Positions 25,995 through 40,585 are shown, counted from the first letter of the stretch. The stretch: 64,000 nt of DNA from Verrucomicrobiota bacterium (GCA_016871575.1 VHCW01000003.1:36835-100834), one strand, 5' to 3'. Made by a program: numbers and translations. Notes: generated by a model not told the origin, from the letters alone.

Positions 25995-27503
25995 TCAAAC
26001 GGAATAACGTAAAATCCGCAACGACCGCTTGGGGAGCTGCCATCGTTTCGCAGGTGTGGCGGCGGAGTCATCCGTGGGAACACACGCATCGGTCATCTCG
26101 ATCTGCTGAGTCGAGTGACCGTAGTTGGCCAAGACCAAGAACAGGTCGCGATTGGCAAAAACTGAAGCCACACAGTCTTTTGGCAGAGGGGTGGCGAACA
26201 AGTCCGAATCGGTGATCTCCAGATAAGCCCAAGTTCCTTCTTCGACCAGCGGCAGGTATTGCTTGAGCCAGCGAGCGTGGGCTGGCCGCATCTCGGTATC
26301 GGGCGGAATCGGATCCCAACCGCCATAGATGTAGGGGCCATTCGGATGTTTCTGATGGTATTCCCAGGCCTTGAGGTAGAGTTCTTCTGGTGGCACTCCC
26401 GGCAGGCGGGGAATCGGAATGACAGCGCGTTCTCCGGTGAGAGGCCGTCCGCCTTGCAGCAACGGGAATTGCATATAGGGAATCGAGTGCAAGAAATGAT
26501 CGTTTGTGTCCTCGACCTTGGCTGCGGTCCCTTGGATGCAGGGGACAACGTAAGGCGTATGGTTCTTCGTCGTTTCGCGCAGGCCGTCGGCATTGGCGAC
26601 GCCCTCTCCCACCCAGAGATAGTCGTAAACCTGAAGCCCGCCGGTCTTCGGTTCATTGGCAAAATCGGCGTGCATCTTATAAATGCCGCCGCGTCGCTTC
26701 ACTTCCGAGTAGATGAGACATAAGAGATCGGTCATGGCGCCGTCATACTGCGGCGTTTCCCGGAACGCGACCACCTCATCTTGGGCAGGCTCCTTGATCC
26801 GCTTTTCCGCATTAGGAACATAGCCCCAGTCGTTATAGAGTCCGTCAAGCTCATAATCTTCGAGAATCTGCAACATGCGCGGCAGGAAATACGCGCGCCA
26901 ACCAGGACTGGCCGGCGAGCATCGCGTCAAATCCCACCAGCCGCCGAGTTCATCACCGGGGCGCGCCCATTCCTTGCGGCAGTCCGGATCGCTTTTGACA
27001 AAATATCCGCTCGAAGCATAGGCGAGAATCTTCATGCCGCGCCTGTGTGCCATCCCGACAAAACGGCGAAATCCCTTCGGATTGACCGCCGTCAACTTGT
27101 TGCCGCCAAACAGTCCGTAGCGATCATTCCATTCGTCCATCACATGAATCAACTGGATTCCATGTTGCTTCAACCGATCCAATTCCTGTTCGTCGGCTTC
27201 GCCGGGTTCCCACGGTTGGCGGCTGGGATATTCCCCCATGTTATACACACATTGAGCGGGCAGGTAATTGACGATCAGGTGCTGGCGCAGACATCGGCGA
27301 ATCTTCTGCGTGCCGATGCCAATGTGTGTGAGGCGTCGCCGGTGATCCTCCGCCGTGTAGTCCTTCAAGATCGCAGGCGCAAAGGAAGACCCCCTGCGGG
27401 TGGCGGCGACTGCGTCTGCCAGTGCGGGGCGCGGTTGAGCGGTGGTGGCAGCGCCCGCCACAACAACTTGGACGCTTGTCTTGAGAAATGTCCGACGATT
27501 CAT
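25995..27503 (-). CDS. Tat-exported hypothetical protein, possibly a glycoside-hydrolase-like TIM-barrel enzyme
   Basis: Twin-arginine signal MNRRTFLKTSVQVVVAGAA. 502 aa. Function is not recognisable from sequence. Confidence 0.55.
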   Translation of the reverse strand: MNRRTFLKTSVQVVVAGAATTAQPRPALADAVAATRRGSSFAPAILKDYTAEDHRRRLTHIGIGTQKIRRCLRQHLIVNYLPAQCVYNMGEYPSRQPWEPGEADEQELDRLKQHGIQLIHVMDEWNDRYGLFGGNKLTAVNPKGFRRFVGMAHRRGMKILAYASSGYFVKSDPDCRKEWARPGDELGGWWDLTRCSPASPGWRAYFLPRMLQILEDYELDGLYNDWGYVPNAEKRIKEPAQDEVVAFRETPQYDGAMTDLLCLIYSEVKRRGGIYKMHADFANEPKTGGLQVYDYLWVGEGVANADGLRETTKNHTPYVVPCIQGTAAKVEDTNDHFLHSIPYMQFPLLQGGRPLTGERAVIPIPRLPGVPPEELYLKAWEYHQKHPNGPYIYGGWDPIPPDTEMRPAHARWLKQYLPLVEEGTWAYLEITDSDLFATPLPKDCVASVFANRDLFLVLANYGHSTQQIEMTDACVPTDDSAATPAKRWQLPKRSLRILRYSV

Positions 27504-29727: not shown

Positions 29728-31308
29728 TCACGGTTTGGCGTGGCCGCTGAGGTAATGGCTGATGCGCCACGTGTGATAGGCGACGCGTTCGAGCCAGCGC
29801 ATCGCGTCGAGCGCCTCCAACGCCTGCGATGCCTCCCAGTTTCCGTCGGCGGTCTGCCGCAGGATGGCGGGGCGCTCCTGCCGTTGTTGTTCGGCCAATG
29901 CCGCCGCGCATTGTTCCACCACGGCCAGCCAATCCGTCGTCGCGCCGTCCCGCAACCCGTTCGTTGCCAGCGCCAGCGATTCCTGGGCGCGCTCCACGGC
30001 CGGCCGCAAGCGTTCATGGGCGAGCATCTGGCGAAGACTGAACGGCGGTTCCAGTCGCATTTCGAGCCGCAGCAGATGATCAATCGCGTGAACCTGCGCC
30101 AGCCGCAACTCCGACAACGGCGCGCCTTCGGTCACCGGCGGAATCCGGGCGAAAAATTCCTGCGTCCGTTCCAACGCCTGCCGAATCAGCACACGACGTG
30201 ATTCCTCCCGGATTCCACTTGGCGCGTGGAGGGTGTCGCGCAGCACGGCGAACAAGTCGCAGGCGATTTCGCTCAACGCGCGGCGGGTCGCTTCCAGCGC
30301 GACGGCGGGCACGCTGAGCAGCGTGTTGTCCAGATGCCGGGTCAGTGTCGGCCCTTGTTCCGGCAACAACCGTTCGATGACCCGGGCGCACCGGTTGACG
30401 TGCGGCAGGAAAATCGCCACGCCCAGCGCGATAAAGGTCGTGTGAAACGCCGCCAGGCTTGTTGCGCCGGCCTCCAGGCCCAGATGCGTCTGCGCCCATT
30501 GGATGACCCACAACAACAACGGCAACAACACCACCGCGATCAGGCCCGTTGCCAGATTGAACAGCACGTGCGCCAACGCCGTCCGCTTCGCGGGCACACT
30601 GCCGCCAATCGCCGCCAGCGCGCCGGTCACCGTCGTGCCGATGGCTGCGCCGATCACCAGCGACGCGGCCTGCTCGAAGTTCACCGCGCCGGTGTGCAAC
30701 GCCGTCAAGGTGGTTGCCACCGCGGCGCTTGACGACTGCATGATGATCGTCATCACAACGCCAATGAGCATCGCCAACAGATGACCGAGGAATCCGCCCG
30801 CCGGCAGCTTGGCCAGTTGAAACACGCCCGACAATCCCTCCATTCCCGTTTGCAGGGTTTCGATGCCGATGAAAATCAATCCGAACCCCGCCAGCGCCAG
30901 GCCGAGCGATTTCCAACGGTCTCGCGCCAGCAGCTTCAGGAACGCGCCCACTCCCACCAACGGCAGCGCGTAAAATCCCACACTGACTTTCAATCCGAGC
31001 ACCGACACGATCCAGCCTGTGCCGGTAGTGCCGAGGCTGGCGCCCAGCACCACGCCGACCGCCTGCGGAAACGTCAGCAGCCCCGCGCTGACAAACCCGA
31101 TCACAGTCACGGTCGTCGCACTGGACGATTGCACCATGGCGGTCACGAGCGCGCCGGACCCGAACGCCTTCAGCGGCGTGCCTGTGAAGCGCATCAACGC
31201 CCGGCGCAACGCCTCGCCGGCGAACGCCTTCAGGCCGTCGGTGAGCATGACCATTCCCATCAGAAACAACCCGATCCCGCCCACCAGTCGAAAAACCATT
31301 CCAATCAT
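29728..31308 (-). CDS. Na+/phosphate cotransporter family protein (NptA-like) with a PhoU-like C-terminal domain
   Basis: 526 aa. Duplicated Na_Pi_cotrans-like hydrophobic halves. Confidence 0.8.
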   Translation of the reverse strand: MIGMVFRLVGGIGLFLMGMVMLTDGLKAFAGEALRRALMRFTGTPLKAFGSGALVTAMVQSSSATTVTVIGFVSAGLLTFPQAVGVVLGASLGTTGTGWIVSVLGLKVSVGFYALPLVGVGAFLKLLARDRWKSLGLALAGFGLIFIGIETLQTGMEGLSGVFQLAKLPAGGFLGHLLAMLIGVVMTIIMQSSSAAVATTLTALHTGAVNFEQAASLVIGAAIGTTVTGALAAIGGSVPAKRTALAHVLFNLATGLIAVVLLPLLLWVIQWAQTHLGLEAGATSLAAFHTTFIALGVAIFLPHVNRCARVIERLLPEQGPTLTRHLDNTLLSVPAVALEATRRALSEIACDLFAVLRDTLHAPSGIREESRRVLIRQALERTQEFFARIPPVTEGAPLSELRLAQVHAIDHLLRLEMRLEPPFSLRQMLAHERLRPAVERAQESLALATNGLRDGATTDWLAVVEQCAAALAEQQRQERPAILRQTADGNWEASQALEALDAMRWLERVAYHTWRISHYLSGHAKP

Positions 31309-31417
31309 GCCGTGATTCTAGAGCGCGTCGCACGCGAGTCAAGAACGCATCGGATAAAGAGCGCAGCGCGAATCTTCGGCTTGCCTGCGCCGGTTCTTTG
31401 TGCGACAAGCCGGAGCC

Positions 31418-34400
31418 ATGAGAACCAGATTTTTCTTCGCATCGTTCCTCTTGTTGTCCGCGATTCTGGTCCGCGCCGATGATTGGCCCACGTACCGGCA
31501 CGACAACGCCCGCAGCGGCATCACACAGGAGAAACTCGCAACGCCTTTGGCCGAGGCGTGGGTGTTCCAATCACGCCACGCACCATCCCCGGCGTGGGAA
31601 CCGCCGCGGGATGTCCCTGTCGAGGGGTTTCTGGAATTGCCGCGCGTGCGATTTGACGATGCCTATCATGTGGTCGCCGCCGGCGACGCGCTCTACTTCG
31701 GCTCGTCCTCCGACAACAAAGTCTATTGTCTCGACGCCCGCACCGGGAAAATACGTTGGACGTTTTTCACCGGCGGCCCGGTCCGGCTTGCGCCAACCAT
31801 CGCGCACAACCGGGTGTACTTCGGCTCGGACGATGGTTTTGTCTATTGTCTCGCTGCCGCTGACGGCTCAGTGGTCTGGCAACGGCGCGTTGGCCCCTCG
31901 GACAAGCGCCTGATCGGCCACGGCAAGATGATTTCGCTCTGGCCGGTCCGCACCGGCGTGTTGGTGGACAAGGACATCGCCTATTGCGGCGCGGGGCTTT
32001 TCCCGTCGGAAGGCATCTATCTCGAAGCGGTTCGCGCCGCCGACGGCGAGTTGCTCTGGCGCAACGACACCGGCGGCGAATCCACCGGCAGCCGGCTCTC
32101 GCCGCAAGGCTATCTGCTGGCCTCGGACACGCAATTGTTCGTGCCCCAAGGCCGGTCCACGCCAGCATTGTTTGACCGTCAGGACGGCAAACTCATCACC
32201 CAACCGACTTTCGGAAAGAGCATCGGCGGCACCGATGCGTGGCTGGTCAACGACACGCTCTACACCGGCACGGAAGAAATCATGGGCTACGACGCGGGGA
32301 CCCGCGCGCGTGTCACATGGTTTGCCGGGCGCAAAGTCATCATCACGCCCAGCATGTCGTACGTCACCACGACCAATGCGATGCTCGCGTTGAATCCTGA
32401 AGGCTATTCGCCGCTGGCCAACGTTTGGCTGCGCCTGCAAGCGGAGCGCACCAAGGTTGCGCGGGACATGCGGACGCCCACCAACGAAAAGAAACGCCTC
32501 ACCGACGCCATTGCTTTGGACCGTGCCGCGCTCGCCAAGGCCGCCAGCGAAACCGAACGCGCCAAGTTGGAAAAAGAAATCCAAGAGCAGGAGACAAAAC
32601 TTGAGTCTGTGACAAAACAATTGGCCGCCTCCAAGGAACGGTTGCAGTCGCTTGATGAAAAACTGAAAGAAGCCCACGCGGGGATGTCCAAGACCATCAA
32701 ATGGCAGTTGCCCTGTGAATGTCCGGATTCCCTCGTCATGGCCGGCGATTTGTTGATTGGCGGGGGACAAGACCACGTGCTCGCCGTCAACGCTGAAACG
32801 GGCAAACAACTCTGGCAGGCAAAAGTCTCCGGTAAAGCCAAAGGTCTCGCCGTTGCCAATGGACGGCTTTACGTCAGCACCGACACCGGCGCCATCCACT
32901 GTTTTGCCACCGGGAAAACGGCTGCGCCTGCGCGTGTCGCGGTGCGAACCAATCCCGCGCCGTATCCATCCGACAAGTTGACCGCGCAATACGCCGCTGC
33001 TGCTGATACCATCGTCCGTGAGTCCGGCGTCAAACGCGGTTTCTGCCTTGTGCTCGGCTGCGAAACCGGCCGTCTCGCGCTCGAACTCGCAAAGCGCACT
33101 GAATTGAACATCATCGGCATCGAACCCGACCCGAAGAAGGTCGTCGCCTCCCGCCGCGCGCTCGATGCCGCCGGCGTGTACGGGGCGCGTGTCATTGTGG
33201 ACTGCGGCCCGCTCAACCGTCTGCCGTACTCGGATTTTTTTGCCAATCTCGTTGTGTCCGATACGGCATTGCTCGGCAACTCTGTTGATGCCGGGCGCGA
33301 ACTGGACCGCGTGCTCAAGCCGGTCGGCGGCGTGGCCATGATCGGCTCCGCCGCGCAATTGAAACAATCCAAGATCATGCGCGGCCCGTTGCCCGGCGCG
33401 GGCGCGTGGACGCACCTCTACGCCAATGCCGCCAACACCGCGTCCAGCGATGACACATTCTTGAAATGTCCGCTCGGCCTGTTGTGGTTCGGCGATCCCG
33501 GCCCGCTGCAAATGCCCAGCCGCCACGTGCGCGCCGCCGGGCCGTTGTCGGTCAACGGTGTGCTCTTTGTGCCCAGCGAACACGCGGTCACCGCCTACGA
33601 TGCGTACAATGGGTTGAAGTTGTGGGAGCGCTCCATTCCCAATGTGTTGCGCACGCGAATTTCGTCGGAATCAAGTTGCGTCGCTGCTGACATGAAAAGT
33701 TTCTACATCGTCAATGCCGACACCTGCCTGCAACTCGACATACAGACCGGCGCAGTTCAGGCGACGTACAAAGTGCCGGCGCAACCCGGCGGTAACCCCC
33801 GTCGTTGGGGGCATCTTGCCGTCGCCGAAGGACGATTGATCGGCAGCGGAGTCGCCGCCACTGACCGCACTTCCGACTTGTTGTTCGCCTACGACACGGC
33901 TACCAGTCAACTGGCGTGGACGCACAAGGCCGAGCGCGTGTTGCACACGGCCATCTCGGTGGGCGAAGGCCGCGTATTCTTCGCCGAACCTCCGGCCCCG
34001 GCCAAGCCGTCGAAAAGCAGCAAGTCGAAGAGCCGCAAGGCAAAGGCGGGCAATGCGCATTCGATAACAGCCATCACCCTGGCCACCGGCCAAACGGCAT
34101 GGCAACAATCCGTGGACTTGACCGGGTGCGTGGACGGCAAATACTGGGGCGCGTTGGGCAGCATGGTTCATGACGGCGTGCTCGTTCTGTTCGGCATCTA
34201 TACCGACGGCCATTACTGGAAAGAATTTTTCGCCAACCAGTTTGACCAGCGCCGGGTCATCACATTGAAAGCGCGTGACGGCTCGCCGCTCTGGTCGAAG
34301 AACATCGCCTACCGGGTGCGTCCGCTCATTCTCGGCGACACGCTGCACGCCGAGCCGTGGGCGTTCGATCTCCAGACCGGCGCGCAACGCCAGCGCACCA

Positions 34401-35257
34401 ATCCCATCACCGGCAATGTCGAGCCGTGGCAGTTCGCCCGGCCCGGCCACCACTGCGGCACGCCCATCGCCGCGCCCAATGTTATGTTCTTCCGCTCCTA
34501 CTATCTCGGCTACTACGACCTCACCGGCGATTACGGCACGATGACCTTCGGCGGACAACGTCCCGGCTGCTGGATCAACTTCATTCCCGCCAACGGCCTC
34601 GCCTTGATGCCCGAAGCCAGTTCCGGTTGCATGTGCCCGTTCCCCAACATGTGCACCGTCGTCTTCGCCCCGCGCCCCGACAACCGCGCGTGGGCGCAAT
34701 ACAGCATCACCGGGGACATCAAACCCGTCCAACACCTCGCCCTGCAACTCGGCGCCCCCGGCGACCGTCGCGATGACAATGGCACGATCTGGCTCGGTTA
34801 TCCGCGTCCCAAAGGCAGCCTCGTGCTGCAATTCAAGCTCGACATCAAACTCAGCCCCGGCGGCGAGTATTTCGCGCACAGTCCCGACTTCATGCGCATC
34901 ACCGGCACGGGCAGCCCGTGGCTCTACACGTTTGGGGCGCGCGGCCTGCAACGCTGTGAAATCCCGCTGCTCGATCCCGGCACCGGCGCGGCTCGTTACA
35001 CCGTGCGGCTCGGCTTTGCCGAGATCGAAGATCGCAAACCCGGTGAGCGCGTCTTCGACATCGCGCTCCAAGGCAAACCCGTGCAAAAGAACTTCGACAT
35101 AGTCGCGCAAGCGCGCGGCCCCCGCAAAGCGCTCATCAAGGAATTCACCGGCGTTGAAGTGACTGACAACCTCGTCATTGAGTTGACGCCGTCAGCATCC
35201 TCCCAACCGCCCATCCTCCAAACCATCGAAATCATCAAGGAACGGACGCTGAAGTAG
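31418..35257 (+). CDS. Giant secreted multidomain protein: PQQ-like beta-propeller repeats, coiled coil, embedded class-I methyltransferase-like segment, C-terminal malectin-like carbohydrate-binding domain
   Basis: Signal peptide MRTRFFFASFLLLSAILVRA. Repeated PQQ/BamB-like blade motifs. Lys/Glu-rich coiled coil around aa 350-440. GFCLVLGCETGRLALELAK...IIGIEPD resembles a SAM-MTase motif I. The C-terminal YTVRLGFAEIEDRKPGERVFDIALQGK resembles malectin. Confidence 0.7.
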   Translation: MRTRFFFASFLLLSAILVRADDWPTYRHDNARSGITQEKLATPLAEAWVFQSRHAPSPAWEPPRDVPVEGFLELPRVRFDDAYHVVAAGDALYFGSSSDNKVYCLDARTGKIRWTFFTGGPVRLAPTIAHNRVYFGSDDGFVYCLAAADGSVVWQRRVGPSDKRLIGHGKMISLWPVRTGVLVDKDIAYCGAGLFPSEGIYLEAVRAADGELLWRNDTGGESTGSRLSPQGYLLASDTQLFVPQGRSTPALFDRQDGKLITQPTFGKSIGGTDAWLVNDTLYTGTEEIMGYDAGTRARVTWFAGRKVIITPSMSYVTTTNAMLALNPEGYSPLANVWLRLQAERTKVARDMRTPTNEKKRLTDAIALDRAALAKAASETERAKLEKEIQEQETKLESVTKQLAASKERLQSLDEKLKEAHAGMSKTIKWQLPCECPDSLVMAGDLLIGGGQDHVLAVNAETGKQLWQAKVSGKAKGLAVANGRLYVSTDTGAIHCFATGKTAAPARVAVRTNPAPYPSDKLTAQYAAAADTIVRESGVKRGFCLVLGCETGRLALELAKRTELNIIGIEPDPKKVVASRRALDAAGVYGARVIVDCGPLNRLPYSDFFANLVVSDTALLGNSVDAGRELDRVLKPVGGVAMIGSAAQLKQSKIMRGPLPGAGAWTHLYANAANTASSDDTFLKCPLGLLWFGDPGPLQMPSRHVRAAGPLSVNGVLFVPSEHAVTAYDAYNGLKLWERSIPNVLRTRISSESSCVAADMKSFYIVNADTCLQLDIQTGAVQATYKVPAQPGGNPRRWGHLAVAEGRLIGSGVAATDRTSDLLFAYDTATSQLAWTHKAERVLHTAISVGEGRVFFAEPPAPAKPSKSSKSKSRKAKAGNAHSITAITLATGQTAWQQSVDLTGCVDGKYWGALGSMVHDGVLVLFGIYTDGHYWKEFFANQFDQRRVITLKARDGSPLWSKNIAYRVRPLILGDTLHAEPWAFDLQTGAQRQRTNPITGNVEPWQFARPGHHCGTPIAAPNVMFFRSYYLGYYDLTGDYGTMTFGGQRPGCWINFIPANGLALMPEASSGCMCPFPNMCTVVFAPRPDNRAWAQYSITGDIKPVQHLALQLGAPGDRRDDNGTIWLGYPRPKGSLVLQFKLDIKLSPGGEYFAHSPDFMRITGTGSPWLYTFGARGLQRCEIPLLDPGTGAARYTVRLGFAEIEDRKPGERVFDIALQGKPVQKNFDIVAQARGPRKALIKEFTGVEVTDNLVIELTPSASSQPPILQTIEIIKERTLK

Positions 35258-35310: not shown

Positions 35311-35802
35311 GTGATGAGACGCTTGCGCATCTACCTCGACACCTCAGTAATCAACTTCCTGTTTGCTGAGGACTCACCGGATTTCCAGAAAGCGACTGTC
35401 GAGTTTTTCACGAAGTACGCGGCGATGTATGAGTTGTATGTGTCAGAGATCGTCCGGCTGGAGATTGGACGGACACCGGACCTGAAACACCGGGAAAGGT
35501 TGTTGGAGGTGTTGCAGCAGTACCCAATCAACATCCTCACGAACGCGGCACGCGCAGAAATCGAGCAGTTGGCGAAGCTTTATGTGTTGCAACAGGTGAT
35601 GCCCGCCGCCAAGTTCGAGGATGCCTTGCACGTTGCCTATGCAACCGTTTACCAAATGGATATATTGCTGTCATGGAACTTCAAGCACTTGGCGAATGTC
35701 CGGCGCGAAGGATTGATTACAGCGGTCAACCAGCAGGCTGGTTACCGCTATCCTTTGCGGCTGTTGTCGCCACTGGAGGTGGAAGATGAAGGCGAAGCCT
35801 AA
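35311..35802 (+). CDS. PIN-domain protein (VapC-like nuclease fold) with a C-terminal extension
   Basis: IYLDTSVINFL plus acidic residues at the expected PIN spacing. Sits in a lower-GC segment. Confidence 0.6.
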   Translation: MMRRLRIYLDTSVINFLFAEDSPDFQKATVEFFTKYAAMYELYVSEIVRLEIGRTPDLKHRERLLEVLQQYPINILTNAARAEIEQLAKLYVLQQVMPAAKFEDALHVAYATVYQMDILLSWNFKHLANVRREGLITAVNQQAGYRYPLRLLSPLEVEDEGEA

Positions 35803-36034: not shown

Positions 36035-37066
36035 CTACTTCTGTTTTCCCTCCAGTTGTTTGCGGACGGCGCTGATGGCCTTGGCTTCGTCGAGATTGCC
36101 GGCGTCCATCGCGGACTTCTGCGCGGCATCAAGGTCGCGGATGTATTGCTGCGCCGCCGACGTGGCCGCGTTTTCGTAACGACTCTTTGCGGTGTTAGCA
36201 AGCGCGCTCGTGAATTGCGGGTTAACCGGCTTGCCGTCCTTGATGTCGCGGGTGGCGTCGCGAATGACGACGGCCTCATCGAGATTGTTGGCGCGCATCG
36301 CGGCCTGCAATGCGGCGTCGAGATCGGCAAGATACTGCTGAGTGGCGGCTGCCAAATATTGGTTGTATCGTGCTTCCGCGGCAGCAGCTTGCCGCGTAGC
36401 AAGTGATGATCCCGACGGGAGAGGTACAGTTGCGGGTGGCGCAACGGTGGGTGCCGGCACAACTGGAGTAGAAACAGCCGCTGAGGGAATCACTCTGCCT
36501 CGCGTCACGAAAATGTTCTTGTATTCGACTTCCCCCTTGGACCAGCTATCGCCGCCGCAGAATCGGAGTTTGTCAGGCGCATTCTTTACTCCTCGGCCCT
36601 TGTTAACCAGTTTTCCGTCCACATAAAACTCGACAGCATCCGGCCTGATGGAAAGAAGAATGTGATAAACGGTTTGCTGATTGTAGTGGAACAGAGGAGC
36701 ACCTTTCGTAGCGGGATAAATTCCAAAGGTCTTCTCGTAGCCTTCGTTCGCAAACGAAAAACGCCCATACTTCACACGCGGGCGCATTCCCTTCAGCACG
36801 TTGATGTCAAACTCCAAGGTGAAGGGCGGTTGGAAATCTTTTTGATACTCGATTTCACTAGCACCACTACCGATCAACGATCCGCCCTTAAACTTCCAAT
36901 CACCGGAGATCACTTTCCATTTCGATTCCTTGTCCTTGGCGAGTAATGCATCCCCATCACTGGCCGGTTTGCCGCCGGGATTGCTGCCAAACCGATCTGC
37001 AGCATTCACACACTCAAGCGTGACCACCAAGACGACGCAGGCAATGGCAAGCAACCAGTGTTTCAT
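36035..37066 (-). CDS. Secreted DUF1080 (3-keto-disaccharide-hydrolase-like) domain protein with a Pro/Ala/Thr-rich linker and a C-terminal tandem ~45-aa repeat
   Basis: Signal peptide. WKVISGDWKFKGGSLIG...FTLEFDINV matches the DUF1080 pattern. C-terminal repeats: QQYLADLDAALQAAMRANNLDEAVVIRD and QQYIRDLDAAQKSAMDAGNLDEAKAISA. Confidence 0.65.
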   Translation of the reverse strand: MKHWLLAIACVVLVVTLECVNAADRFGSNPGGKPASDGDALLAKDKESKWKVISGDWKFKGGSLIGSGASEIEYQKDFQPPFTLEFDINVLKGMRPRVKYGRFSFANEGYEKTFGIYPATKGAPLFHYNQQTVYHILLSIRPDAVEFYVDGKLVNKGRGVKNAPDKLRFCGGDSWSKGEVEYKNIFVTRGRVIPSAAVSTPVVPAPTVAPPATVPLPSGSSLATRQAAAAEARYNQYLAAATQQYLADLDAALQAAMRANNLDEAVVIRDATRDIKDGKPVNPQFTSALANTAKSRYENAATSAAQQYIRDLDAAQKSAMDAGNLDEAKAISAVRKQLEGKQK

Positions 37067-37162: not shown

Positions 37163-38071
37163 TCACTTCAAATACTGGCCGAGGTTCTCTTTCGTCACAA
37201 GCTGGAACGGGATGAAGACCTGTTTCTCGTAAGGCTGTTTCTTGACGATCTTGACGGCGACATCGACAGCGCCGCTGCCTTGGCCGCGCGCATCTTGAAA
37301 CACCGTGGCGTCAAGCCGCCCGGCTTTGACGGCTTGCAGCGCATCGGCAATCGCATCTACTCCGGCGACGATGACTTTGTCTTTCATCTTCGCCTGCTCC
37401 AACGCAAGTAGCGCACCCATCGCCATTTCGTCGTTCTGCGCGAACACAGCCTTGATCTTTGGGCCGAGCGATTGAATCCAGTTTTCCATCAAGCTCATCG
37501 CCTTGGCCCGGTCCCATTCGCCGGTCTGGTCGGCGAGCAACTTCAAGCCGGGATTCTTCGCGAGGATTTCGCGGGCGCCCTGGTCGCGCTTAATCTGCGC
37601 GGCTTGTCCCATGAACCCGTGCATCATCACGACGTTGCCTTGGCTGTTGAGCCGCTTGGCGAGGTAGTCCATCGCGATGCGGCCGGATTCCTCGTCGCGC
37701 GAGCCGACAAACGCCGTCGGCGCGGTCCGCGTCTCGGAGTTCACGTTCACAATCGGGATGCCGGCGGCCAGCGCCTTGTCAACGGCGGGCGCACTCGCCT
37801 CGACTTCGCACGGGTTAAGGATGATGGCGTCCACCCGCTGCGCGATGAAGCTCTCGACCTGCTGAACCTGCCGCTCGGCGCTGCGTTGGGCGTCATTGAT
37901 GATGAGCTTCACGCCAAGTTCCTTCGCCTTCGCTTCCATCGCTTGATGAATCATCACGATGAATTCGTTCGACAAGTTCAACAGTGTAACCCCGATGGTG
38001 ATGCGTTTCTCTCCCGATTGCTCACAACCGCACAACGCCAGCACGAAAACCAATGCGATGATTCGTTTCAC
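37163..38071 (-). CDS. Sugar ABC transporter substrate-binding lipoprotein (RbsB/periplasmic binding protein family)
   Basis: Lipobox LALCGC. PBP type I fold pattern. Confidence 0.8.
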   Translation of the reverse strand: MKRIIALVFVLALCGCEQSGEKRITIGVTLLNLSNEFIVMIHQAMEAKAKELGVKLIINDAQRSAERQVQQVESFIAQRVDAIILNPCEVEASAPAVDKALAAGIPIVNVNSETRTAPTAFVGSRDEESGRIAMDYLAKRLNSQGNVVMMHGFMGQAAQIKRDQGAREILAKNPGLKLLADQTGEWDRAKAMSLMENWIQSLGPKIKAVFAQNDEMAMGALLALEQAKMKDKVIVAGVDAIADALQAVKAGRLDATVFQDARGQGSGAVDVAVKIVKKQPYEKQVFIPFQLVTKENLGQYLK

Positions 38072-38988
38072 GATTTCTCCTTGCGACGGTCGAGCCAGAC
38101 AGCGCCGACGATAATGATGCCTTTCACGATGGCTTGATAGTAGGGCGACACGTTCAGTAAATCGAGGCCGTTATTGATGACACCCATCAACAGTGCGCCG
38201 AGAATCGTCCCGCCAACGCCACCGACGCCGCCCGACAAGCTCGTGCCGCCGATGACAACCGCTGCGATCGCGTCGAGCTCGTAGCCCGCGCCGGCGTTGG
38301 GCTGGCCGGTCGTGATGCGCGAGGCGAGCACGACGCCGGCAAGTCCCGCCAGCGAGCCGCAGACGGTGTAGGCAAACAATTTCACCCGTTCCACGTTGAT
38401 GCCCGAAGCGCGCGCGGCGTTCTCGTTGCCGCCGACCGCGTAGATGTGACGGCCCAGTTTCAGGTTCGCCAGGAAAACCCACGAGACAATCGCAACGGCA
38501 ACGAGGATGAGAATCGGGACCGGACCGTTGCCGATCCATTTGAACTCCTCGCTCAAGTTAGACACCGGCCGCCCGCCACTGATGACGAGCGCCAGCCCGC
38601 GCGCAACTGTCATCATGCCGAGCGTCACGATAAACGGCGCAACGCGTCCTTTCGTGACGACCAGACCGTTGACTGCACCGCAAGCCGTCCCTGCCAGCAC
38701 GCCTAGCAACACGGGCACGAACACCGGGTACTCGCCCGGATGCGCGAAGCTGGCCGCGACGACGCCCGTCAGCGCCACGAGCGAGCCAAGCGAGAGGTCC
38801 ACGCCGCCGGTCAACAGCACGTAGGTCACGCCAACGGCCAGGATACCGTTGATGGAAATCTGACGGACGACATTGAGCAGGTTCGGCCACGTCAGGAAAG
38901 CCGGGTGAACGACGGCCATTGTTGCGCCGATAACAACCAGCGCGATGACAAGGCCAAATCGAGAGAGCCAAACTTTCAGCGAGTTCAT
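38068..38988 (-). CDS. Sugar ABC transporter permease (RbsC/AraH-like)
   Basis: Start MNSLKVWLSRFG at aa 15 of the track ORF (ATG checked). Multi-TM. Confidence 0.75.
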   Translation of the reverse strand: MNSLKVWLSRFGLVIALVVIGATMAVVHPAFLTWPNLLNVVRQISINGILAVGVTYVLLTGGVDLSLGSLVALTGVVAASFAHPGEYPVFVPVLLGVLAGTACGAVNGLVVTKGRVAPFIVTLGMMTVARGLALVISGGRPVSNLSEEFKWIGNGPVPILILVAVAIVSWVFLANLKLGRHIYAVGGNENAARASGINVERVKLFAYTVCGSLAGLAGVVLASRITTGQPNAGAGYELDAIAAVVIGGTSLSGGVGGVGGTILGALLMGVINNGLDLLNVSPYYQAIVKGIIIVGAVWLDRRKEKS

Positions 38989-39136
38989 GCGATGAACGGG
39001 ATAATAGCCGTTTTGCCAAACGCAGGTCAATCAGGTCGAACGGGAACTGTTGTAGCTGCGCTTGTGTCAAGCGCAGCGGTCCGGACTGCTCTGAAACAGC
39101 ATCGGCGCTTGGCACAAGCGCCACTACAGCGCGTCG

Positions 39137-40585
<1,449 letters not shown>

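Follow-up and report, generated by a model that had tools for sequence, protein, structure and literature searches.

An exported two-propeller protein from a Verrucomicrobiota bacterium with a degenerate methyltransferase-like fold, a malectin domain and a family-specific conserved block

What does a methyltransferase-like domain do in a protein that carries an export signal, when it is set between two beta-propellers and followed by a malectin domain? The question is raised by a gene at 31418..35257 (+ strand; ATG start, 1279 codons and a stop) in a 64,000-nucleotide stretch of DNA from a Verrucomicrobiota bacterium (GCA_016871575.1, VHCW01000003.1:36835-100834), referred to here as the window, from whose first letter all coordinates are counted. 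The original prediction, made from the sequence alone, had seen in it an unusual composite, possibly a periplasmic or cell-surface carbohydrate-recognition scaffold. Based on profile searches, predicted structures and a comparison with homologues, we have shown that the domain order is a signal peptide, an eight-bladed BamB-like propeller (propeller 1) with a helical hairpin insert, a class-I methyltransferase fold, a second eight-bladed propeller (propeller 2) and a malectin domain. Our preferred interpretation, to which we assign a probability of roughly 0.45 and which draws on residue conservation and structural models, is that of an exported protein of the Planctomycetes-Verrucomicrobia-Chlamydiae (PVC) group in which the malectin domain would target a glycan, a conserved block of propeller 2 would be the working site and the methyltransferase fold would be a non-catalytic spacer.

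The gene itself is secure. An uninterrupted + strand open reading frame (ORF) spans 31400..35257 and would give 1285 amino acids (aa) from a GTG at 31400; from the in-frame ATG at 31418 the length is 1279 aa, six residues fewer. The ATG is the likelier start because the close homologues P0001 and P0002 begin with MRTRF... at the equivalent methionine, and residues are numbered from it throughout. The start at 31418 given originally is retained, and the accompanying length of 1285 aa, which needs the upstream GTG, is in excess by a trivial six codons. Antisense ORFs of 571 and 479 aa overlap the gene, as expected at a G+C content of 62%. The + strand gene is nevertheless real and not a chance high-GC reading frame, since homologues align with it from end to end (47-78% identity, E = 0; database search, 120 best matches); it is to these 120 homologues that the conservation values below refer.

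The first 20 residues (31418..31477, + strand), read from the sequence and from the homologue N-termini, form a Sec-type signal peptide, MRTRFFFASFLLLSAILVRA, in which a basic n-region is followed by a hydrophobic core of 14 residues and a V-R-A site, with cleavage predicted before DDWPTYRHD. The same layout, together with a conserved mature start (DWPTYRHD), recurs in nearly all of the 60 homologue N-termini inspected, and the signal peptide proposed at the outset is thereby confirmed. This peptide, which ends in ...AILVRA before DD, has neither a lipobox cysteine near the cleavage site nor a twin-arginine motif. The protein would thus be exported by the Sec pathway, in soluble form, to the periplasm or beyond. 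Export by the Tat route, which would allow a folded and cofactor-loaded domain to be translocated, was considered and rejected, the inspected N-termini having no twin-arginine consensus.

Structures were predicted with AlphaFold2 for two segments, aa 21-700 (model A; predicted local distance difference test score, pLDDT, 85.2; predicted template modelling score, pTM, 0.84) and aa 500-1279 (model B; pLDDT 85.7, pTM 0.83), each from a 49-sequence alignment. The predicted folds were compared with the PDB by Foldseek, and Pfam matches were judged by their gathering cut-offs. PQQ_2 matches the whole protein in five stretches (E 2.2e-41), and the models and Foldseek agree with this on the two PQQ/BamB-like propeller blocks that had been recognized in the sequence. 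Foldseek matches were likewise obtained for the methyltransferase and malectin folds, and both of these domains score above their Pfam cut-offs; the protein does not reduce to a generic BamB-type propeller.

Propeller 1 begins directly after the signal peptide. Its first part, aa 21-325 (31478..32392, + strand), comprises about 25 strands in roughly six BamB/PQQ-like blades (PQQ_2, model A, Foldseek), and its last blades, aa 427-510 (32696..32947, + strand), add the seven strands that complete the propeller in model A, giving a total of about 32, which is consistent with eight blades. The best Foldseek matches are BamB structures (E 2.5e-19, template modelling (TM) score on target about 0.7). 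The two parts are separated by a helical hairpin, aa 326-426 (32393..32695, + strand; model A), which corresponds to the long coiled coil of the original prediction and is modelled with high confidence as helices at aa 327-350, 352-374 and 378-425 (block-mean pLDDT 91-96). Nearly all relatives keep this hairpin, with little sequence conservation (column mean 0.35) and a length that ranges across the family from 9 to 124 aa, with a median of 104. It may be an interaction element. Just after it lies a P-C-E-C (P-C-x-C) motif (aa 432-435; 32711-32719, + strand), in which C433 is found in 82/120 and C435 in 109/120 homologues.

The class-I (Rossmann) methyltransferase-like domain occupies aa 520-655 (32975..33382, + strand) and was identified with Pfam, phmmer and Foldseek. 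Residues 544-638 score 30.9 bits with Methyltransf_25 (cut-off 27) and 26.4 bits with Methyltransf_11 (cut-off 21.2). Foldseek superposes the domain on 3dlc at 26% identity with a root-mean-square deviation (rmsd) of 2.2 A over 128 columns and also matches RebM, and phmmer finds 3dlc with E 2.4e-7. The Pfam scores and the Foldseek match to 3dlc identify the fold as a Rossmann-like methyltransferase fold. With the small class-I methyltransferases MMP1179 (3dlc) and RebM (3bus) the domain shares the Rossmann core from beta1 to about beta5, G547, G551, E569 and the RxLKPGG motif. Unlike them, it sits between two propellers in an exported protein, reads GCETG in place of GxGxG, and has a proline where they have the adenine-binding aspartate. 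The fold that had been suspected is therefore present, whereas the motif I cited for it (VLGCETG) is degenerate. Motif I reads G547-C-E549-T-G551, and E549 aligns with the central glycine of 3dlc (IGSGPG) and 5gm1 (IGCGTG). The acid at the end of beta2, which contacts the ribose hydroxyls, is present as E569. The acid after beta3, which binds the adenine N6, is replaced, P598 aligning with the aspartate of qGDv in 3dlc. Judged on these residues, the METHYLTRANSFERASE fold is degenerate in this protein, two S-adenosylmethionine (SAM)-binding residues having been lost.

The homologues indicate how this state is distributed. The mean column conservation of the domain is 0.67, and G547, G551 and the RxLKPGG motif are invariant. 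The remaining SAM-binding positions vary: position 549 is G in 60 sequences, E in 39, D in 7 and K in 6; position 569 is E in 70, D in 25, C in 12 and S in 11, and is thus acidic in 95/120; and position 598 is Asp or Glu in 48/120. The losses are correlated. Among the 60 sequences with G549, the acid at 569 is kept in 57 and that at 598 in 39, and among the 60 without it these numbers fall to 38 and 9. Our protein and its Verrucomicrobiota relatives read G-E-G-E-(P/S/L/A/T) at the SAM-binding positions, and all five are canonical in 37/120 sequences. SAM is a cytoplasmic metabolite, and the cleavable Sec signal peptide of the query and its homologues would place the domain where SAM is not available. 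Since the SAM motif is degenerate, the protein Sec-exported and SAM cytoplasmic, we interpret the domain as a pseudo-enzyme, whose activity as an enzyme has most likely been lost. In this lineage it would no longer bind SAM and would act as a non-catalytic structural or ligand-binding spacer between the propellers. A fold of this kind, kept in an exported protein while its SAM residues decay, offers a clear natural example of an emerging pseudo-enzyme. The residues retained elsewhere in the family are compatible with a cofactor-binding role of the domain, either ancestral or in some lineages, and the third of the members with an intact SAM signature could possibly carry out a cofactor-dependent reaction outside the cytoplasm.

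If the methyltransferase fold is a spacer, where would the protein do its work? The strongest conservation lies in propeller 2, in a region for which the original prediction had named no feature. The propeller is entered through a conserved linker, aa 656-700 (33383..33517, + strand; RGPLPGAGxWTHxYAxxxNT...CPLGLLWFGxPGP), which stands out in the conservation map with the highest mean column conservation of any segment (0.79). The first part of the propeller, aa 701-924 (33518..34189, + strand), is defined by PQQ_2 (E 1.9e-11 for aa 655-899 scanned alone), model B and Foldseek, whose best match is tetrathionate hydrolase (E 9.3e-17), followed by BamB and dehydrogenases dependent on pyrroloquinoline quinone (PQQ). 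About 33 strands are modelled for the whole propeller. Within this part, a Lys/Ser/Ala-rich surface loop, aa 857-882 (33986..34063, + strand), is disordered in model B, with pLDDT below 50 at aa 864-876 (model residues 365-377). This loop is an insertion hot-spot of the family, with up to 193 aa in relatives; in P0133 and P0172 a CBM9 (carbohydrate-binding module, CBM) is inserted at the equivalent place.

The propeller is closed by a conserved block, aa 925-1095 (34190..34702, + strand), delimited by its invariant residues and with a mean column conservation of 0.78. Its motifs are DGHxW, RxRP, AEPW, WQFARPGHHCG, FRS, YDL, QRPGCWIN and PEASSGCxCPFP. H932, R945, R966, R968, E979, R1008, H1011, H1012, C1013, R1026, D1034, R1048, C1051, N1054, C1071 and C1073 are invariant in the 120 homologues, and E1066 is present in 118 of them; the four block cysteines and R968, R1008, R1026 and R1048 are still invariant among more diverged sequences (down to 42% identity). 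Invariant Trp residues are likewise present in the linker and block. Two of these cysteines belong to an invariant G-C-M-C-P (aa 1071-1073; 34628-34636, + strand) in which position 1072 varies between Met, Leu and Gln. All four lie in loops, in a lower-confidence part of the model (block-mean pLDDT 62-83). A scan of the segment gave no Pfam family and only a sub-threshold PQQ_2 blade match. A profile of the block compared with PDB sequences matched only the generic blade motif, in BamB, and found no relative for the Cys/His part. On this pattern of conservation, we consider the block a candidate functional centre of the protein. As the working site, it would bind a glycan and possibly cleave or modify it; the ligand is probably anionic, because many of the invariant residues of the block are arginines. 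The four invariant cysteines may staple the loops of the site, either as disulfides or around a metal. Other cysteines co-occur in the pairs 104/904, 215/911, 593/1022 and 625/1019. Disulfide partners were not assigned from this co-occurrence, the three-way correlations (215/821/911, and 593/1022 with an insertion column) being indicative of clade effects.

The link to glycans comes from the C-terminus. The malectin-type domain that had been proposed there, aa 1096-1279 (34703..35254, + strand), is upheld both by Pfam and by the malectin fold found with Foldseek. PF11721 scores 52.3 bits on the whole protein and 56.2 bits on the isolated segment (cut-off 23), and Malectin_like scores 25.2 bits on the isolated segment (cut-off 24.5); the sequence alignment covers the core signature only (profile positions 74-136 of 163). 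Foldseek matches human malectin 9ikp (E 5.6e-8, TM-score on target 0.67, rmsd 3.8 A) and the plant malectin-like ectodomains ANX1/2 and FER (E about 1e-9), and the pLDDT of the domain in model B is mostly 88-97, with one 10-residue block at 75. Its mean column conservation is 0.66. Malectin is equated with CBM57 in CAZy, and the domain shares with malectin/CBM57-type modules and with the FERONIA and ANXUR ectodomains both the fold and the signature Y.V.L.FAE...RVFDI...G...DI.

The malectin domain is not the only module of this type in the family. In relatives the same core carries additional CBM96, CBM9, NPCBM or F5/8-type C modules, so that carbohydrate-binding modules appear interchangeable around it. 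A C-terminal extension of about 263 aa is present in 99/120 aligned sequences, and our protein, which stops after malectin, is among the shorter minority. For instance, the extension of P0006 consists of a NEW3-like module and a CBM96, the latter defined as an alginate-specific carbohydrate-binding module (PMC9971899). By analogy, a constant core with interchangeable binding modules is the pattern of carbohydrate-active enzymes. Like multimodular enzymes of that kind, the protein has malectin appended to a larger core, with other CBMs in its relatives; unlike them, it contains no recognized glycoside hydrolase (GH) or lyase module. The malectin domain would tether the protein to its glycan, to which most relatives would add a C-terminal CBM96 and some a CBM9, NPCBM or F5/8-type C module. 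From these modules, the protein probably acts on sugars outside the cytoplasm, and the role in periplasmic or cell-surface carbohydrate recognition put forward in the original prediction is plausible.

The architecture, described at first as unusual, proved to be common. Nearly all of the 120 best database matches are full length with the same Pfam set; their named sources are Verrucomicrobia, Kiritimatiellae, Lentisphaerae and Planctomycetes, and they carry the automatic names 'PQQ-binding-like beta-propeller repeat protein' (NCBI) or 'BamB' (JGI). A scan of reference genomes, one per species, found relatives encoded at no fewer than 564 loci in phyla of the PVC group. Among the matches listed, these are mostly from Planctomycetota (Pirellulales, Thermoguttaceae, Phycisphaerales, Sedimentisphaerales) and Verrucomicrobiota; the latter include Methylacidiphilum (a metagenome-assembled genome (MAG), locus L013), Chthoniobacteraceae, Limisphaerales and Prosthecobacter, and Kiritimatiellota, Lentisphaerota and a few Armatimonadota are also represented. 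The same matches show one or two copies per genome, two being found in some MAGs. Identity to our protein is 60-78% within Verrucomicrobiota, about 58% to Lentisphaerota and Kiritimatiellota, and 47-52% to Planctomycetota. In an exhaustive search (E <= 1e-3), 1723 cluster representatives match aa 900-1095, and among 77 diverged representatives with propeller 1, as judged by domain-specific hidden Markov models, 67 also hold the methyltransferase fold, the block and malectin; most of the exceptions look like truncated or fragmentary gene calls. Since the 120 best matches and these 67/77 representatives share the domain set, the architecture is a stable family signature and not a one-off fusion. 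Three apparent short forms lacking propeller 1 and the methyltransferase fold (P0133, P0158, P0189) were discarded as truncated gene calls, as they start within or just after RvLKPGG and have no signal peptide. The gene is thus an ordinary member of a catalogued but uncharacterized family of the Planctomycetota-Verrucomicrobiota-Kiritimatiellota-Lentisphaerota group, for which we found no description in the literature. All of its domain types were already known; new here are the family-specific conserved block and the unusual exported pseudo-methyltransferase. The family is widespread and strongly conserved over several phyla, and its best-conserved block is without a Pfam family or a solved sequence relative.

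The automatic names call for a comparison with the systems that they evoke. BamB (YfgL) resembles our protein in its eight-bladed PQQ_2-type propeller, its extracytoplasmic location and its position as the best structural match of propeller 1. However, in BamB, a lipoprotein of about 390 aa, there is only one propeller, whereas this protein lacks a lipobox, is 1279 aa long and adds five modules to its first propeller (by domains, two propellers and three others), and sequence identity between them is about 14%. The BamB equivalog models are missed by far (TIGR03300, 70.2 bits for a cut-off of 285.2; PRK11138, 59.9 for 423), and with these failed cut-offs, the absent lipobox and the different architecture, the protein is not BamB. 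Nor is it a quinoprotein dehydrogenase. The best structural matches of propeller 2, tetrathionate hydrolase (7cqy, E 9.3e-17) and PQQ-dependent dehydrogenases (1kv9, 4mh1), share with it the blade motif of quinoprotein-type propellers (PQQ_2, PF01011) at 10-15% identity, but they have no sequence counterpart of the HHCG, GCW and GC.C block. Scores are far below the subfamily cut-offs (TIGR03075, 49.4 bits for 480; TIGR03074, 20.6 for 833), and only a fraction of the profile is matched, the best PF01011 stretch covering profile positions 27-83 of 595.

How does the preferred reading, a glycan-targeting protein working through the propeller-2 block, stand against the alternatives? Several observations weigh against it. 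The most diverged set keeps Gly, Pro, Trp, Cys and Arg invariant and no carboxylate pair, a pattern that a binding or structural role would explain no less well than hydrolysis. No known GH or polysaccharide lyase (PL) propeller was returned for propeller 2 by Pfam or among its top 50 Foldseek matches in the PDB. At 80 loci the gene is not embedded in polysaccharide-utilization or sulfatase clusters, and no association with glycan genes was found there. For an enzyme that scavenges nutrients, 47-50% identity between phyla along about 1300 aa is a high value, and a housekeeping role in the envelope could be behind it instead. Lastly, about one third of the family (37/120) keeps the intact SAM-binding signature. 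The first of these points leads to the view of the original prediction, namely a non-catalytic scaffold or lectin that binds glycans or proteins and organizes the surface or periplasm without chemistry of its own. Propeller 1 has its best structural match in BamB, which serves purely as a protein-protein scaffold, the long protruding hairpin is a typical interaction element and the methyltransferase fold is degenerate, all of which such a role would accommodate, together with the absence of a carboxylate pair among the residues retained by the most diverged set. We nevertheless hold a pure scaffold or lectin to be possible but rather unlikely, since the near-invariant His-His-Cys, Asp1034, Glu1066, Asn1054 and four arginines are gathered in a compact block, a stronger pattern than is usual for a lectin surface, and since the exchange of accessory binding modules around a constant core is the pattern usual for catalytic cores. 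A bolder proposal, which we regard as improbable, starts from these conserved residues and makes the block, possibly joined by the neighbouring methyltransferase-like cleft, the active site of an unrecognized family of extracytoplasmic PVC enzymes. Its members could be polysaccharide lyases or hydrolases of a new kind, or metal-dependent enzymes that modify glycans, and their substrates could be anionic glycans of the environment or the envelope of the cells themselves; should the block turn out to be catalytic, the result would be a new family of carbohydrate-active enzymes, in bacteria that are known to degrade complex polysaccharides.

A housekeeping function is conceivable too: the protein could be a PVC-specific factor of envelope biogenesis, serving outer-membrane protein assembly, peptidoglycan or a surface polysaccharide in a BamB-like role. 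Conservation roughly tracks phylogeny (the three identity levels given above by phylum), there are one or two copies per genome with no catabolic gene context, the JGI annotation reads BamB, and the family is present in the Methylacidiphilum MAG; the genome of M. infernorum has been described as streamlined (PMC2474590). However, the wide failure of the BamB equivalog models and the lack of a lipobox, a size and domain set quite unlike those of BamB, and variable carbohydrate-binding modules that would be unexpected in a core machine component make such a factor doubtful in our eyes. Were it correct, it would be of interest for the cell envelope in Planctomycetota and Verrucomicrobiota, which is poorly understood. 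Much further from the evidence is an active methyltransferase, in which the embedded domain would use SAM to methylate whatever glycan or protein the propellers and malectin hold. The Pfam families above cut-off, the match to real enzymes, the invariant glycines and RxLKPGG, and the sequences with all five SAM-binding positions speak for it. Against it are the glutamate and proline at two of these positions, the Sec signal peptide in view of the cytoplasmic location of SAM, a Rossmann core that is minimal (about 135 aa) and shows no obvious addition for binding an acceptor, and the joint decay of the SAM-binding positions across lineages that retain the domain. In this lineage the domain is probably not a working SAM methyltransferase, and we consider that activity very improbable as an explanation of the protein. 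The glycan-targeting protein with its working site in propeller 2 is therefore the reading that we retain.

The divergent neighbour of the gene is indeed a Na/Pi cotransporter, as the original prediction stated (29728..31308, - strand; PF02690, E 8.9e-50), but the pairing is incidental, the cotransporter being absent next to the 78%-identical homologue P0001. Upstream of P0001 lie other genes, and only a downstream PIN-domain gene and a sugar ABC (ATP-binding cassette) transporter are common to the two loci; other homologues have unrelated neighbours. Clustering of the ORFs flanking 80 homologue loci gave no neighbour family in more than 11 of them, the commonest being sulfatase-like. A functional link to phosphate transport was accordingly dropped, with no partner in more than 11/80 loci and no cotransporter beside the closest full-length homologue. 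The gene looks stand-alone, without conserved neighbours, and there is no paralogue of it within the window. The protein may thus act alone and not within an operon-encoded system.

At about a dozen homologue loci, mostly from Verrucomicrobiota, the gene directly upstream runs in the same direction and encodes a PQQ-only paralogue of about 1000-1160 aa (for instance L001 4986-7973, L007 5432-8416, L009 437-3430, L012 5047-8412 and L029 4890-8369). This paralogue, which does not occur in the window, is devoid of the GHHCG, GC.CP and LKP.GG motifs and might be a partner protein.

Directly downstream of our gene is the PIN-domain (VapC-like) gene (35311-35802, + strand; PF01850, E 3.8e-7). In L003/L004 it also stands behind the 78%-identical homologue, with a 74-aa ORF after it, and the two may form a toxin-antitoxin pair. 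The ABC transporter is of the ribose type (37163-40585, - strand; Pfam) and consists of a periplasmic binding protein, a permease and a duplicated ATPase; its block is also found downstream of P0001 and is not conserved beside more distant homologues. Two ORFs of the window gave no Pfam assignment. One, of 502 aa (25995-27503, - strand), is flanked by genes for a histidine kinase and a pyruvate kinase and has no Pfam family at E <= 0.001. The other, of 343 aa (36035-37066, - strand; no Pfam match), begins like a signal peptide, contains a linker rich in Ala and Pro, and carries several copies of a '...NLDEA...' motif towards its C-terminus.

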